A stretch of 64,000 nucleotides of DNA from Candidatus Methylomirabilota bacterium (GTDB taxonomy: Bacteria > Methylomirabilota > Methylomirabilia > Rokubacteriales > CSP1-6), in contig DASQAK010000198.1 of NCBI GenBank assembly GCA_035635755.1, positions 12,710 through 76,709 on the forward strand. The letters run 5' to 3'. Within the stretch, counting starts at the first letter, position 1; every line of letters starts with the position of its first letter. This document shows positions 1-41,220 of the stretch, in pieces. Below the pieces are notes generated by a model that was given only the letters and a program-made list of their open reading frames with translations, ran no database searches and was not told the origin of the DNA. Position numbers and translations under genes: made by a program.

Positions 1-959
1 TTCGCGAGCACGGGCCGACCGCGCAGCTTCCCGTCATCATGCTCACCGCCAAGGCCCAGCTCGCCGACAAGATCCAGGGCTTCGATCGCGGTGCCGACGA
101 CTACGTCGCCAAGCCCTTCGAGCCCTCGGAGATGCTGGCCCGCGTGCAGTCGCTCCTCAAGCGCACGGCGCTCGCGCGGCTGACCGGACCGCTCATGGGC
201 GTGCTGGGCGATTGGTTCAATCGAGAAGGCGTGGCGCAGCTCACCCGGGATCTCGAGGCCGCGCGCGACATCCAGCAGCGCCTGCAGCCGGCCGTGCCCT
301 CCGCGCTCGCCGGGCTCGAGGTGGGCGCCTTGCTCCGTCCCTCGACCATGGTCGGGGGCGACTTCTTCGACATCTTCCCGATGGGCGAGCGCATCGGGGT
401 GGCCGTGGGTGACGTCTCCGGCAAGGGCATCCCCGCCGCTCTCCTCATGGTCATGGTCCGCACGCTGCTCCGCGAGATCGCGCGCGGGCTCAGCGAGCCC
501 GCCGAGGTCCTGGCCAAGCTCAACGCCTCCCTGTGCCGCGACATGCCGCCGTCCATGTTCGTCACCCTCGTCCTCGGCGTGCTCTCTCCGGGGCACGTGG
601 GACGGATCGCCCTCGCCTCGGGCGGGCACCCGGAGCCGCTCCTGATGCGCGCCGCGGGAATCCCGGCCCCCGTTCGCGTCGGCGGCATGATCCTGGGCGT
701 GTTCGAGGAGACGCGCTTCGAGCAGGTCGAGATCGACCTCGAGTCGGGGGACAGCCTCGTCCTTCTGACCGACGGCCTCATCGAGGCTCCGGAGAGCGGG
801 GGCAAGCGTCCCGGGCTGCCGCGCGTGCTCGACGCCCTCGTTCGCGCGCGCGCGCTCACGGCTCAGCGACAGGCCGAGGCCCTGACCGCGGACGTGCTCG
901 AGCGCGGGACGGCCCAGGTGCACGATGACATGACGACGTTCATCCTCAAGCGTCCCTAG
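1..959 (+). CDS. Response regulator (receiver domain, 5' end cut by window edge) fused to a PP2C/SpoIIE-family serine phosphatase; RsbU/HsbR-like
   Basis: The frame is open from nt 3. The N-terminal stretch reads ..[40 protein letters not shown], which is the C-terminal half of a CheY-like receiver. It is followed by SpoIIE/PP2C motifs GGDFFDIF and [15 protein letters not shown], and the C-terminal DDMTTFILK. Stop at 957-959. Confidence 0.9.
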
Positions 960-968
960 GAGACGGCC

Positions 969-1520
969 GTGCCCAGAGTGCGCGAGATCGAAGACGACGG
1001 CGGCGATCCCATCCTGAAGGAGGCTTTCGCCAAGCAGCGCGAGGTCTTCGGGGGCCTCTTGAATCCGACCAAGGTCCTCGCGCACTGCCCACCCATCCTC
1101 AAGGCGGCCGCCCAGCTCTCGGGCTCCATCGAGAAGTCGGGCCGGCTGCCCGCCGAGCTGCTGCCTCTCATCTACCTGCGCGTGGCGCTGATCAACGGCT
1201 GCCCGTTCTGAATTGACATCAACGCATCCCGGGGGATGCAGGCGGGGGCGGATGACGACAAGGTGCGCGAGGTGCCGACCTGGCGCGAAAGCCGGCGCTT
1301 CTCGACCATGGAGCGGGTGGCCCTCGAGTACGCGGAGGCCATGACCATCACGGGTCAGAAGGTGAGCGACGAGCTCTTTGCGCGCCTCAAGAGTATCTTC
1401 GACGACGGCCAGATCGTGGAGCTGACGGCGGCGGTCGCCCTGGAAAACTTCCGGAGCAAGTTCAACGTGCCCCTGGGGGTCGAGTCCCAGGGCTTCTGCG
1501 TGCTCAAGCCGTCGAGCTAA
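969..1520 (+). CDS. Carboxymuconolactone decarboxylase (CMD)/AhpD-like family protein containing an in-frame UGA at 1209-1211; candidate selenoprotein, alternatively a nonsense-disrupted gene
   Basis: ORFs 969-1211 and 1236-1520 are in the same frame. Joined, they read ..LRVALINGCPF[UGA]IDINASRG..VPTWRESRRFSTMERVALEYAEAMT.., which is one continuous CMD domain. The UGA falls where the second Cys of the NGCxxC redox motif is expected. GC3 stays high across the junction. Confidence 0.6.
1224..1239 (+). promoter_or_regulatory. Candidate SECIS-like hairpin (GCATCC-CGGG-GGATGC) starting 12 nt downstream of the in-frame UGA
   Basis: Perfect 6-bp stem with a G-rich 4-nt loop. The UGA-to-loop distance of about 19-22 nt lies within the range described for bacterial SECIS elements. 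Confidence 0.35.
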
Positions 1521-8360: not shown

Positions 8361-10604
8361 ATGAATCTCAACCGATGGAAGGTCTGGTCGTGCGTGGCCG
8401 GAGTCCTGCTCCTGCTCGCCCTCGTCACGCCGTCACGAACCGATCTCGGGTGGGCCTACCTCTCGCGGCGCGAATATGCCCTCGCGCGCGAGACCTTCGT
8501 GGAGCAGCTGCGACGCGACCCGTCCGATCCCCAGACCTGGCTCGGACTGGCCGCCGTCTACGATGCGCTCGGAGATCCCGACCGGCAGATCGCGGCGCTC
8601 GAGACGGTGGCTCGCCGCTTCCCGGGCCATCGCGACGCACGCCGGCTCCTCGCCGACGTCTACGAGTGGAACCGCGACCCCGAGAGTGCCCTGCGCGTCC
8701 TCGCGCAGATGCCGCCCACGGGCGAGGCCGAGGACCAGCCGAGGCTCATGCGCGTCCTCGGTCTCTCGCAATGGCTGGGTCAGTACGACCGCATGGTCAT
8801 CTCCCTCCACCAGATCCTGAGGCTGGGGCCGACGGTGCGCGACACTCTCGAGGATCTCGTGGTTTCGGCGCGCGTGCTCGGCCGGCAGAGCGAGGTCTTG
8901 CCGGCCCTTGTCGCCTACGCGGAGCGTCGCCCCTCGGATGCCGAGGGCCAGCGCCTCCTCGCCGAGGTCTACGATTCGCTGGGCGACGAGAAGCAGGCGC
9001 TCGACCGCTGGCGTATCGTGGCCCGCCTGCGGCCCAAGGACGCCGCGGCGCGCGCGCGTCTCCTCCCCGAGCCGGGCGGCGCCGCGCCCGTCGAGGAGCT
9101 GGCCCTTCTCGAGCGTGCCCGCGAGAGCGATCCGCGGGACGAAGCGGCGCGGCGCCGGCTCGTCGAGATCTACCACGGGGCCGGTGACATCCCGCGCGCC
9201 ATCGAGATCCAGCGCGAGCTGGTGGCCCTCCGGCCGCGGGACGCCGAGGCCCTGATCGCCCTCGGGGGACTCCTCGTCGCCCAGGACCGCGGGCGCGAGG
9301 CGATCGGCGTCTACGAGCGCGCCCTCGAGATCGAGCCGGGGCGGGCCAGCCTCGAGATGACCCTGGCCCAGCTCTACGAGTGGACCAATCAGCCCGGCCG
9401 AGCGGCTGCGCTTCTCGAGCGGGCCTCGGCGGCCCGCCCGGGTGACCGGGCCCTCGCCGAGCGTGTGATCGCGGCCGCGAGCGCGGCAGGGGATACGGAC
9501 AAGGCGGTGGCGGTTCTCGACCGGCTCGCTCGGCTGTATCCCGACGATCATCGCTACGCTCGCCGGGCCGCGGACGCGCTCGTGGCCGCCAACCGCGTGC
9601 CCGAGGCGATCCCACGCCAGCGCGCCCTCCTCGAGCGCGAGCCGGGCGCCCCCGAGCCGGCGCTGAGGCTCGCCCAGCTCTACGAATGGACGGGCAAGGA
9701 GGCCGAAGCCATCGGCGTGTACGAGGGGCTGGATCGCGCGGGCAGTCTTCCGGAGGCCTCCGCCCTCAGGCTCGCCGAGCTCTATCGCTTCCAGAACCGC
9801 CCCGCCGATTTCGTGCGGCTGGCCGAGCGGCTCCTGTCGCGACGGCCGGACGACGCGTCGCTGCGACGGGAAGCCATAGAGACAGCGACGGGCCTCGGCC
9901 GCGCGGACCTCGCCCTCAGGCTCCTCCGTCCCCTGGTCGATCGGCAGCCGGCCGACGAGACGCTGGCTCTTCGCTATCTCGGCCTCGCGGCGGAGGCGCG
10001 GCGCCTGGACGACGGGCTCGGCGTGTGGCGGCGATTCCTGGCCGCGACCCCCGGGGCCAAGATCGACGCCCGGCTCAAGGCCGGGAAGCTTCTCGCCGAC
10101 CTTGGGCGGCCGGGGGATGCCATCGTTGAATATGAAGCGGCGGTCGCTTTGGGAGGCGACAAGCCTGAGGCCGCCGCGAACGTGACCGCCCGCCTCGCCC
10201 TCGCCGCGCTCTACGAAGCCACCGGGGCCCCGGCGAAATCGCTGGCCCAGCTCGAGGCGCTCCAGCGGTTGCGCCCGCGTGATCCCGCCATCCTGCGCGA
10301 GGTAGGGCGGCGCAGTCTCGGCCTGTCCCGACAAGAGTCCGCCTTGCGCGCGTATCAGGCGCTGCTCGACCAGGAACCCAACGACCTCGAGGCGCTCAAG
10401 CGGGTCGGCCAGCTCCTGGCCTGGAGCGGCGAGCGACCGCGCGCGAGGCAGGCGCTCGAGCGGTTCAATCGTCTCAAGGGGGGCGACTACGAAGTGCACT
10501 ACCTGCTGGGCGAGATCTACACGGCCGAGCACGACGAGGGACGTGCCCGGTCCGAGTACGAGAAGGCCTTGCGGCTTCTCCCCCCACGGTCAGCCACGAG
10601 ATAG
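8361..10604 (+). CDS. pelB: TPR-repeat scaffold protein with N-terminal membrane anchor, corresponding to the N-terminal TPR region of PelB
   Basis: N-terminal hydrophobic segment VWSCVAGVLLLLALV, then about 700 aa of repeated A/L/R/E-rich 34-residue TPR-like units (..AEVYDSLGD.., ..AQLYEWTG..). It lies in pelB position. Confidence 0.8.
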   Translation: MNLNRWKVWSCVAGVLLLLALVTPSRTDLGWAYLSRREYALARETFVEQLRRDPSDPQTWLGLAAVYDALGDPDRQIAALETVARRFPGHRDARRLLADVYEWNRDPESALRVLAQMPPTGEAEDQPRLMRVLGLSQWLGQYDRMVISLHQILRLGPTVRDTLEDLVVSARVLGRQSEVLPALVAYAERRPSDAEGQRLLAEVYDSLGDEKQALDRWRIVARLRPKDAAARARLLPEPGGAAPVEELALLERARESDPRDEAARRRLVEIYHGAGDIPRAIEIQRELVALRPRDAEALIALGGLLVAQDRGREAIGVYERALEIEPGRASLEMTLAQLYEWTNQPGRAAALLERASAARPGDRALAERVIAAASAAGDTDKAVAVLDRLARLYPDDHRYARRAADALVAANRVPEAIPRQRALLEREPGAPEPALRLAQLYEWTGKEAEAIGVYEGLDRAGSLPEASALRLAELYRFQNRPADFVRLAERLLSRRPDDASLRREAIETATGLGRADLALRLLRPLVDRQPADETLALRYLGLAAEARRLDDGLGVWRRFLAATPGAKIDARLKAGKLLADLGRPGDAIVEYEAAVALGGDKPEAAANVTARLALAALYEATGAPAKSLAQLEALQRLRPRDPAILREVGRRSLGLSRQESALRAYQALLDQEPNDLEALKRVGQLLAWSGERPRARQALERFNRLKGGDYEVHYLLGEIYTAEHDEGRARSEYEKALRLLPPRSATR

Positions 10605-26594: not shown

Positions 26595-27746
26595 ATGCAG
26601 AATCTCTTCTACCTCACGAACGAGCAGCGGGCCATCCGCGATCTGGCCCGCGACATCGCGCGCGAGCGGATCGCTCCCCGGGCCGCTCACGTGGACGAGA
26701 CGGGCGAGTACCCTCGGGAGCAGCTGGCCGCCCTCGCCAAGCAGGGCCTCATGGGGCTGCACATCCCCGAGCAGTACGGGGGCAGCGCGGCGGGCGCGCT
26801 GGCCTTCTGTCTCGCGGCCGAAGAAGTCGCCTGGGCCTGCGCCTCGACCTCGACCATCTTCCTCGTGCAGAACCTCGGCGGCTATCCCATCCTTTTCGCG
26901 GGCACCGAGGCGCAGAAGCGCCGCTACCTCCCGCGCATCGCCGCGGGAGAGATCACCGCCGCGTTTTCACTCTCAGAGTCCGGCTCGGGCTCCGACGCCG
27001 CCGCCGTCACCTGCGCGGCCGTGCGCAAGGGTGATCGGTACATCGTCAACGGATCGAAGATGTGGGTGACCAACGGCTCTCACGCCGGCATCATCACGGT
27101 GTTCGTGTCCACGGACAAGGCCAAGCGCGCCAAGGGCGTCACCGCCCTCCTCGTCGAGCCCGGCATGAAGGGATTCAGCGTCGGCAAGCCGGAGAGGAAG
27201 CTCGGAATTCACGGAAGCCCGACGGTGTCGCTGCACTTCACCGATTGCGAGGTGCCCGTGGACAATCGCCTCGGCGACGAGGGGCAGGGGTTTCCCGTGG
27301 CCATGCGGACGCTGCAGCAGTCGCGGCCGACCATCGGCGCCCAGGCCGTGGGAATCGGCCAGGCCGCGCTCGATGCCGCGGTGTCCTACGCCCGCGAGCG
27401 GCGTGCCTTCGACCAGCCCATCGGCGCCTTCCAGGGCATCCAGTTCATGCTCGCGGACATGGCCATGGCCGTGCACGCCTCACGCCTGACCGTGCATCAC
27501 GCGGCCGGGCTCATCGATCGAGGGGAGACGCAGACCGCGATGGAGGCGTCCTTCGCCAAGTGCCTGGCCTCGGACAGCGCCATGAAGGTGGCCACGGACG
27601 CCGTGCAGGTGCTGGGCGGCTACGGGTATACGCGGGAGTTCCCCGTCGAGCGGTTCATGCGGGACGCCAAGATCACGCAGATCTACGAAGGCACCAACCA
27701 GATCCAGCGCCTGGTGATCGCCCAGCATCTCCTGGGCAAGCTCTGA
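26595..27746 (+). CDS. Short-chain (butyryl-CoA-type) acyl-CoA dehydrogenase
   Basis: 383 aa. ..FSLSESGSGSDAAA.., and ..RDAKITQIYEGTNQIQRLVIA.. containing the catalytic Glu. Confidence 0.92.
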   Translation: MQNLFYLTNEQRAIRDLARDIARERIAPRAAHVDETGEYPREQLAALAKQGLMGLHIPEQYGGSAAGALAFCLAAEEVAWACASTSTIFLVQNLGGYPILFAGTEAQKRRYLPRIAAGEITAAFSLSESGSGSDAAAVTCAAVRKGDRYIVNGSKMWVTNGSHAGIITVFVSTDKAKRAKGVTALLVEPGMKGFSVGKPERKLGIHGSPTVSLHFTDCEVPVDNRLGDEGQGFPVAMRTLQQSRPTIGAQAVGIGQAALDAAVSYARERRAFDQPIGAFQGIQFMLADMAMAVHASRLTVHHAAGLIDRGETQTAMEASFAKCLASDSAMKVATDAVQVLGGYGYTREFPVERFMRDAKITQIYEGTNQIQRLVIAQHLLGKL

Positions 27747-40230: not shown

Positions 40231-41220
40231 ATGGCCGGCGCGATCTGGTGCGTGGTTGAGGACGATAGGCAGGGCAATCCCAAGAAAGTGATGGCCGAGG
40301 TTCTGGGCGAAGCCTCGCGGCTGGCTTCGCAGCTGGGCGGCCCCACCGAAGCGGTGTGGCTCACCGACAAGGCGACCGAGGCCGGCCTCAAGCAGCTCGG
40401 TGAGTGGGGCGCCAAGCGTGTGCTTCTCGTCGAGAACGCCGGCCTCGCGCCGTATCGGGGCGAAGTGTGGGCGCCCGTGCTCGCCGAGCTGGTGCAGAAG
40501 GAGTCGCCGCAGGCGGTCTTTGGCGCGGTGACGACGCGGCAGCGCGAGGTCATGGCGCGCCTGGCCGCGCGGCTGGGCGCCGGGCTCGCCGCCGATGTCG
40601 TGGCCCTCGCCGTCGAGGACGGCAAGCTCATCGCCACGCGGCCCGTCTACGCGGGCAAGCTGCTCTCGAAGATGACCTGGGCCAAGACGCCGTGGCTCGC
40701 CACGCTCAGGCCCAATGTCTTCAAGCCGGCCGAAGGCCAGCCGGGGGCGGCGGCCGCGGTGGACAAGCCGGCGGCCACGGTGCCTGCGCCGGCCATGAGC
40801 CTCGTGGAGCGGCGGGAGGAGTCCTCCACCGGTCTTCCCGAGCTGGCCGAGGCCGAGATCGTGGTGTCAGGCGGCCGCGGTCTCAAGGGACCGGAGAACT
40901 TCGTCATCCTCGAATCCCTGGCCAAGGTGCTGGGGGCGGCCGTGGGCGCTTCGCGCGCGGCCGTCGACGCGGGCTGGCGGCCCCACCGCTTCCAGATCGG
41001 GCAGACGGGGCGGACCATCTCGCCGAAGCTGTATCTGGGCTTCGGCATCTCGGGCGCCATCCAGCACCTGGCGGGTATGCGCACCTCCAAGGTGATCTGC
41101 GCCATCAACAAGGACCCCGAGGCGCCGATCTTCAAGATTGCGGATTTCGGCATCGTGGGCGATCTCTTCGAGGTTGCCCCGGCGCTCGAGCAAGAGTTCA
41201 AGAAGCTCCTGGAGAAATAG
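40231..41220 (+). CDS. etfA: Electron transfer flavoprotein alpha subunit
   Basis: The C-terminal FAD-binding region is ..VVSGGRGLKGPENF..LGAAVGASRAAVDAGW..QIGQTGRTISPKLYLGFGISGAIQHLAGM... 329 aa. Confidence 0.95.
   Translation: MAGAIWCVVEDDRQGNPKKVMAEVLGEASRLASQLGGPTEAVWLTDKATEAGLKQLGEWGAKRVLLVENAGLAPYRGEVWAPVLAELVQKESPQAVFGAVTTRQREVMARLAARLGAGLAADVVALAVEDGKLIATRPVYAGKLLSKMTWAKTPWLATLRPNVFKPAEGQPGAAAAVDKPAATVPAPAMSLVERREESSTGLPELAEAEIVVSGGRGLKGPENFVILESLAKVLGAAVGASRAAVDAGWRPHRFQIGQTGRTISPKLYLGFGISGAIQHLAGMRTSKVICAINKDPEAPIFKIADFGIVGDLFEVAPALEQEFKKLLEK

Follow-up and report, generated by a model that had tools for sequence, protein, structure and literature searches.

An in-frame UGA in a Methylomirabilota gene is predicted to encode the selenocysteine of an AhpD-like CPFU protein

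Near the start of the 64,000-nucleotide stretch of Methylomirabilota DNA that we analysed (the window), a single reading frame extends from a GTG at position 969 to a TAA at 1518–1520, interrupted solely by a TGA at 1209–1211 (Table 1). The first-pass annotation had described two ORFs here, 969–1211 and 1236–1520, which share one frame and together form a single CMD domain. Our analysis bears this out: the ATG at 1236 lies in frame with the GTG at 969, and the Pfam CMD model (PF02627) spans residues 41–124, across the TGA, and scores 50.5 bits (cut-off 23; E 2e-13). Read through the TGA, the frame yields a 183-residue protein (P0001) in which Cys78 is encoded by the TGC at 1200–1202, and aligned orthologues begin with MPRV.EI at the codon that matches the window's GTG start. 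Immediately upstream, on the same strand (window 3–959, +), lies a gene whose product joins a response-regulator receiver domain to a SpoIIE/PP2C phosphatase (Pfam Response_reg and SpoIIE), and whose TAG stop overlaps the Shine-Dalgarno-like AGGAGA of the gene studied here.

Table 1. Features of the predicted selenoprotein gene in the window, and of the selenocysteine machinery and other candidate selenoprotein genes elsewhere in the same genome
Feature	Location	Strand	Remarks
Shine-Dalgarno-like AGGAGA	window 958–963	+	5 nt from GTG 969; read directly from the sequence
Predicted selenoprotein gene, AhpD-like/YciW-like, CMD fold	window 969–1520	+	183 codons, GTG start, putative Sec codon mid-gene, TAA stop
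Predicted redox motif C78-P79-F80-U81 (TGC CCG TTC TGA)	window 1200–1211	+	putative Sec codon TGA at 1209–1211
Putative bacterial SECIS core: GCAUCC/GGAUGC 6-bp stem, CGGG apical loop	window 1224–1239	+	covariation and conservation in orthologues
selB, selA and tRNA-Sec cluster (L001, L007, L008)	contig C46:5117–9962	−	
selD, Sec-containing form (L014)	contig C81:18029–18970	−	in-frame TGA, AACAG-U-ASKMGPGDL; 9-bp hairpin after it
CMD/AhpD-like paralogue, candidate selenoprotein (L104)	contig C203, about 620–1138	+	LNGCRY-U-LTLRY
Third AhpD-like paralogue, candidate selenoprotein (L105)	contig C33, about 9540–10050	+	LNDCAY-U-MATRY

We collected 80 orthologous loci, each from the genome of a different species and 63–87% identical to the window's protein, which together with the window make a set of 81. 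They come from metagenome-assembled genomes of Methylomirabilota/Rokubacteria and from soil Alphaproteobacteria, the latter including the cultured Reyranella soli, Reyranella sp. CPCC 100927, Vineibacter terrae, and Rhodospirillales bacterium URHD0017. Genomic context varies across this set. The window's gene is flanked by the response-regulator/PP2C phosphatase gene and a gene for a DUF2127 protein; such a phosphatase neighbour occurs in only nine of the 81 loci, and the commonest neighbour is an M28 peptidase (22 other loci). Neighbourhood clustering of the 81 loci found no conserved partner gene, and none of them showed a peroxiredoxin cluster or linkage to ahpC.

The TGA itself is present at the equivalent codon in all 81 sequences, every one of which reads NGCPF-TGA-[I/M/V]-D-[I/L/V]-N. 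The gene also occurs in 84 of 151 genomes sampled evenly from the window's phylum, where nearly every match contains one internal TGA. By contrast, nine more distant full-length homologues carry Cys in this column, among them P0004 (NACSFC), P0102 (GCEWC), and P0118 (DCRFC). The first-pass annotation had placed the UGA at the second cysteine of a CxxC motif and had suggested examining whether the column alternates between Cys and Sec across relatives; the alignment confirms the placement, giving a CPFU motif whose last position corresponds to Cys in the homologues, with TGA in the close orthologues and Cys farther out. Codon comparisons of the window's gene with ten close orthologues gave dN/dS values of 0.15–0.26 upstream of the TGA and 0.11–0.25 downstream of it, which show purifying selection on either half of the gene. 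The short stretch from the TGA to the following ATG is likewise maintained: residues 82–89 are conserved in frame, and Asp83 is invariant in the alignment.

A perfect hairpin begins 12 nt past the TGA, composed of GCATCC (1224–1229), CGGG (1230–1233), and GGATGC (1234–1239); the distance between UGA and loop is 18 nt and the folding energy −9.2 kcal/mol. The published consensus for bacterial SECIS elements (bSECIS) comprises a 4–16 bp stem with a 3–9 nt loop, a G at loop position 1 or 2 with G or U after it, a UGA-to-loop distance of 16–37 nt, and a minimum free energy of at most −7.5 kcal/mol (PMC13188914, Fig. 2A). The window's hairpin agrees with all four features (6-bp stem and 4-nt loop, G at the second loop position followed by G, 18 nt, −9.2 kcal/mol), so the spacing that had been called SECIS-compatible on first inspection is supported by the consensus. 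Taken alone, the hairpin is nevertheless statistically indistinguishable from chance: about 12% of shuffled sequences contain a perfect stem of at least 6 bp in an equal search space, and in a single-sequence fold of 1209–1270 (62 nt; z = 0.34) the minimum free energy structure lacks the 1224–1239 hairpin. An Rfam scan of 1100–1400 was negative, also for bacterial SECIS families. Since the single-sequence signal is absent, the significance of the hairpin derives only from its conservation and covariation among orthologues.

These are pronounced. A perfect stem of 5–7 bp, located 14–18 nt from the U of the UGA and closed by a loop of 3–6 nt, is found in 81 of 81 sequences, in 24 sequence versions that include GCAUCC-CGGG-GGAUGC, GCAUCA-CGUG-UGAUGC, UUCCGUC-CGUGU-GAUGGAA, UUCGGUC-CGUGU-GACCGAA, and CUGCG-CGUGC-CGCAG. 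In the alphaproteobacterial set, 97.3% of the alignment cells are paired and five of the seven stem pairs show compensatory changes on both sides; these pairing values were matched by none of 500 shuffles, and slid registers pair to at most 60%. In the Rokubacteria/Reyranella set the inner five stem pairs do not vary, even at third codon positions where a change would be synonymous; five sequences have A-U instead of C-G as the pair that closes the loop, and at the outer end of the stem U-A and C-G alternate. The residues encoded by the stem (A-S-R-G-M-Q or S-V-R-V-M-E) shift jointly while pairing is preserved. In many orthologues the G at the second loop position is followed by U, where the window has G, and the energy limit of −7.5 kcal/mol is passed by 67 of the 81 hairpins, the other 14 being weaker (folds of 25-nt segments). 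The hairpin is thus conserved with compensatory changes and conforms to the bSECIS consensus, the outcome on which the first-pass annotation had made its proposal depend.

One of the Cys forms, P0004 (L098/L100:3001–3561), has TGC at the codon in question and is 56–58% identical. Its gene has a 5-bp hairpin, CUGCG-CGCCU-UGCAG, at an offset of 16 nt, which may be a SECIS remnant left after a recent Sec-to-Cys conversion; the genome that encodes P0004 also has selA. Only chance-level 4-bp stems were seen in two more distant Cys forms (L101 and L102).

The window's genome (3.86 Mb in 270 contigs, 82% complete) encodes the entire Sec pathway, as the first-pass annotation had proposed to verify. 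tRNA-Sec was detected on contig C46 with 67.9 bits, in agreement with ARAGORN, which reports SeC(tca) with anticodon TCA; selA (583.6 bits) and selB (376.3 bits) lie on the same contig, and selD (343.4 bits) is on contig C81. In addition, the genome holds three other candidate Sec genes, namely two CxxU paralogues of the window's gene and selD itself, each followed by a hairpin 16–17 nt after the UGA. In the C203 paralogue this is a 7-bp hairpin, AUGCCGG-GGC-CCGGCAU, beginning 16 nt after the UGA, and in the C33 paralogue CGCCUU-GGG-AAGGCG about 17 nt after it. The best NCBIfam match of the C203 protein is NF053654, at 79 bits and below the cut-off. Beyond this genome, selA was found in eight of nine genomes tested via the orthologue loci, the four cultured isolates among them, and in 133 of the 151 genomes of the phylum sample (74 of 84 carriers of the gene and 59 of 67 non-carriers). 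The carriers in which selA was not detected (10 of 84 in the phylum sample and one of nine among the orthologue loci) are all draft metagenome assemblies. Because selA is nearly universal in the phylum, its co-occurrence with the gene there does not discriminate.

From this evidence, read from sequence and its comparison, we conclude that the UGA at 1209–1211 is very probably decoded as selenocysteine. We place equally high confidence in the reading of 969–1520 as one gene for a predicted 183-residue thiol/selenol oxidoreductase that is AhpD-like (CMD-fold, YciW-related) and carries the motif Cys78-Pro-Phe-Sec81. The original proposal of a candidate selenoprotein is accordingly strengthened by the TGA in 81 of 81 sequences, the Cys of distant homologues, the covarying hairpin, and the Sec machinery of the genome.

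The first-pass annotation had considered a nonsense pseudogene, in which one TGC-to-TGA substitution in this genome disabled what had been a normal AhpD-like gene with a CxxC motif, to be an equally simple explanation. A single base change would indeed suffice, and gene callers do report two ORFs. However, the identical TGA recurs in all 81 sequences, in two phyla and throughout the phylum sample, the half of the gene downstream of it has a dN/dS of 0.11–0.25, and the residues between TGA and ATG are retained, with Asp83 unchanged. A TGA that never varies among the orthologues, with purifying selection on the coding sequence to either side of it, excludes a nonsense pseudogene of recent origin; we regard the probability of this reading as negligible, and the supposed parity of the two explanations does not hold. 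It is also extremely improbable that the locus makes two small proteins, residues 1–80 and residues 90–183 started at the ATG at 1236, that assemble as a split CMD domain. This ATG is kept in most Rokubacteria orthologues (MQAG...), but the Met codon forms part of the hairpin (GGG AUG C), and several alphaproteobacterial orthologues have Val, Thr, Ala, or Arg instead of Met90 (SARAVE, SVRATE, SARAAE, SLRVRD), so that there is no conserved downstream start. Moreover, a split at this place would ignore the in-frame conservation of residues 82–89 and would fall within residues 79–91, which form one continuous helix in the AlphaFold2 model.

A further possibility is that the UGA is read through without selenium, by near-cognate insertion of Trp, Cys, or Arg or by local reassignment, with the hairpin acting as a mere stimulator. 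Several public full-length entries (P0002, P0003, P0005, and P0007) have G, S, W, or L where the Sec would stand, as might be expected from such read-through; these residues presumably stem from TGA translated under other codes, and the entries show only that some pipelines translate the codon in this way. TGA terminates 15 of the 32 long, high-GC3 ORFs of the window; as a normal stop for these ORFs, it is not reassigned genome-wide. The homologous residue, furthermore, is always Cys, the genome encodes a complete Sec pathway, and both the geometry of the hairpin and its G-containing loop fit SelB-dependent elements. We therefore consider selenium-free read-through very unlikely and retain selenocysteine insertion as the preferred reading. 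A crude read-through scan also returned two other TGAs in the window with open high-GC3 frames on both sides, at 27080–27082 (−) and 40867–40869 (−). Neither has a nearby Cys or a Pfam domain, and both overlap long ORFs on the opposite strand; they were rejected as read-through sites and probably belong to antisense frames.

With selenocysteine insertion, decoding would proceed as follows. When the ribosome reaches the UGA at 1209–1211, the mRNA hairpin at 1224–1239, through its G-rich apical loop, would recruit SelB-GTP with Sec-tRNA(Sec); selenocysteine would then be inserted and translation would run on to the TAA at 1520. In the resulting protein, Sec81 would most likely be the nucleophile; as it reduces an oxidised partner or substrate, it would become linked to Cys78 in a transient selenenylsulfide.

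The structural prediction is compatible with such a redox centre. An AlphaFold2 model built on a 30-sequence alignment shows an all-helical AhpD-like fold (pLDDT 93.1, pTM 0.88) in which Cys78 directly precedes helix 79–91 and Sec81 lies within its first turn. CxxC redox centres are usually arranged in this way, with one Cys just ahead of a helix and the second residue in the first turn. The closest solved structure is that of PA0269, an AhpD-like protein of Pseudomonas aeruginosa (PDB 2O4D, 2IJC, 7XW1), both by sequence (E about 1e-17) and by Foldseek (TM 0.91–0.94 over the target); Atu0492 is also among the closest structures. The segment INGCAYCVNMH of PA0269 aligns with INGCPFUIDIN, so that Sec81 corresponds to Cys51 of PA0269, which has Cys where the window's protein has the predicted Sec. 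About 40 additional N-terminal residues distinguish the window's protein from PA0269; the 'peroxidase-related' structures 2PRR, 2OYO, and 6K40 have such an extension too and are the closest over the full length (Foldseek TM 0.85). AhpD of Mycobacterium tuberculosis (PDB 1KNC, 1GU9) shares a CxxC-type redox centre on a CMD-fold helix-turn-helix and is a remote structural match only (Foldseek E about 0.3, TM 0.55).

PA0269 has weak peroxidase activity in vitro, and a proton relay has been described for Glu36, Cys48, Tyr50, Cys51, and His55 of this protein and for Glu118, Cys130, Cys133, and His137 of the M. tuberculosis enzyme (PMC3141380). In the window's protein, the residues equivalent to the PA0269 relay are Pro66, Cys78, Phe80, Sec81, and Asn85. 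The Cys pair is thus kept as Cys78/Sec81, whereas the relay Glu is replaced by Pro66, in a variable column, and the relay His by Asn85; the Glu118/His137 relay of the M. tuberculosis AhpD is equally not kept. The first-pass annotation had correctly noted an Asn in place of a usually conserved His, but had located that His two residues further on, and in AhpD it sits four residues after the second Cys. The Asn85 column holds Asn in most aligned homologues, including several Cys forms, and we therefore interpret it as a trait of the clade and not as a sign of decay. With both Glu and His lost, the proton relay of AhpD proper is absent, for which reason we call the protein AhpD-like instead of AhpD, and it is unlikely to handle its substrate exactly as the classical enzyme does. 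A third cysteine, Cys177 (window 1497–1499), belongs to a C-terminal QGFC motif and is near-invariant in Sec and Cys forms alike; a role as resolving or relay cysteine is possible. Asp83 and Cys177 are accordingly put forward as candidates for auxiliary roles, by inference only.

Selenoproteins of this general type were known from metagenomes, as the first-pass annotation had stated. Among the selenoprotein families newly described from the Sargasso Sea was one of AhpD-like CxxU proteins (27 sequences, COG2128; Zhang et al, 2005, PMC1088965), and the GOS data contained 299 sequences of "AhpD-like 1" (COG2128, CxxU) and 70 of "AhpD-like 2" (pfam02627, CxxU) (Zhang and Gladyshev, 2008, PMC2398784). 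A 2026 review lists several AhpD-related selenoprotein families, including 'AhpD-like protein' (TIGR01926, CxxU) (PMC13188914). Compared by their published descriptions, these marine proteins share with the window's protein a CMD/AhpD-like domain, Sec as the second residue of the CxxU pair, a small G-containing apical loop in a SECIS just downstream, and widespread Cys homologues; they come from marine plankton, whereas the clade described here comes from soil and groundwater Methylomirabilota and from Alphaproteobacteria. TIGR01926, the model cited for AhpD-like selenoproteins, gives the window's protein only 41.5 bits against a cut-off of 81.8.

The best curated match is NCBIfam NF053654, 'GroundWater_YciW: YciW-related (seleno)protein', a family with Sec and Cys forms, which aligns end to end (residues 3–175 on profile positions 3–175 of 179; E 4.5e-42). 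At 143.8 bits the window's protein falls far under the equivalog cut-off of 310, as do the Reyranella soli orthologue (133 bits) and the Cys-form P0004 (124 bits); these scores argue for a sister clade of NF053654 and not for membership, and by this sequence comparison the window's protein probably belongs to such a clade. The clade defined by NGCPF-U-IDIN is marked by Asn where the relay has His, by the invariant Asp that follows the Sec at a distance of two residues, and by the near-invariant Cys of QGFC, and it ranges over more than half of the sampled Methylomirabilota and cultivable aerobic soil Alphaproteobacteria (Reyranella, Vineibacter). Tentatively, and with the balance somewhat against it, one might regard the clade as a distinct YciW-like subfamily that almost always uses Sec, lies outside every curated model, and perhaps performs a chemistry other than AhpC recycling. 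Its members could then use a Sec81/Cys78/Cys177 relay on a small-molecule or protein substrate, with an ionised selenol that would dispense with the proton relay of AhpD.

The family is systematically mis-annotated in public protein collections. A protein search returned 643 relatives. Among the 120 best, the majority are roughly 100-residue fragments beginning at Met90 (MQAGADEDK...); the shared start indicates that gene callers everywhere split the gene at one place. One database entry stops exactly at ...INGCPF, and hundreds of public entries, P0008–P0101 among them, contain only the C-terminal half, under the name 'alkylhydroperoxidase family enzyme' or 'hypothetical protein'.

AhpD-like selenoproteins have been known since 2005, and the window's protein adds a member. 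Its correct reading matters chiefly for annotation, as it supplies one more selenoprotein to a genome with at least three other candidates. Very large selenoproteomes have recently been reported for Methylomirabilota (PMC13188914, citing Deng et al, 2026), and the Sec reading proposed here, together with the other candidates, agrees with them. Finally, cultured bacteria of the genera Reyranella and Vineibacter carry orthologues, through which the function of an AhpD-like selenoprotein can be tested in practice.
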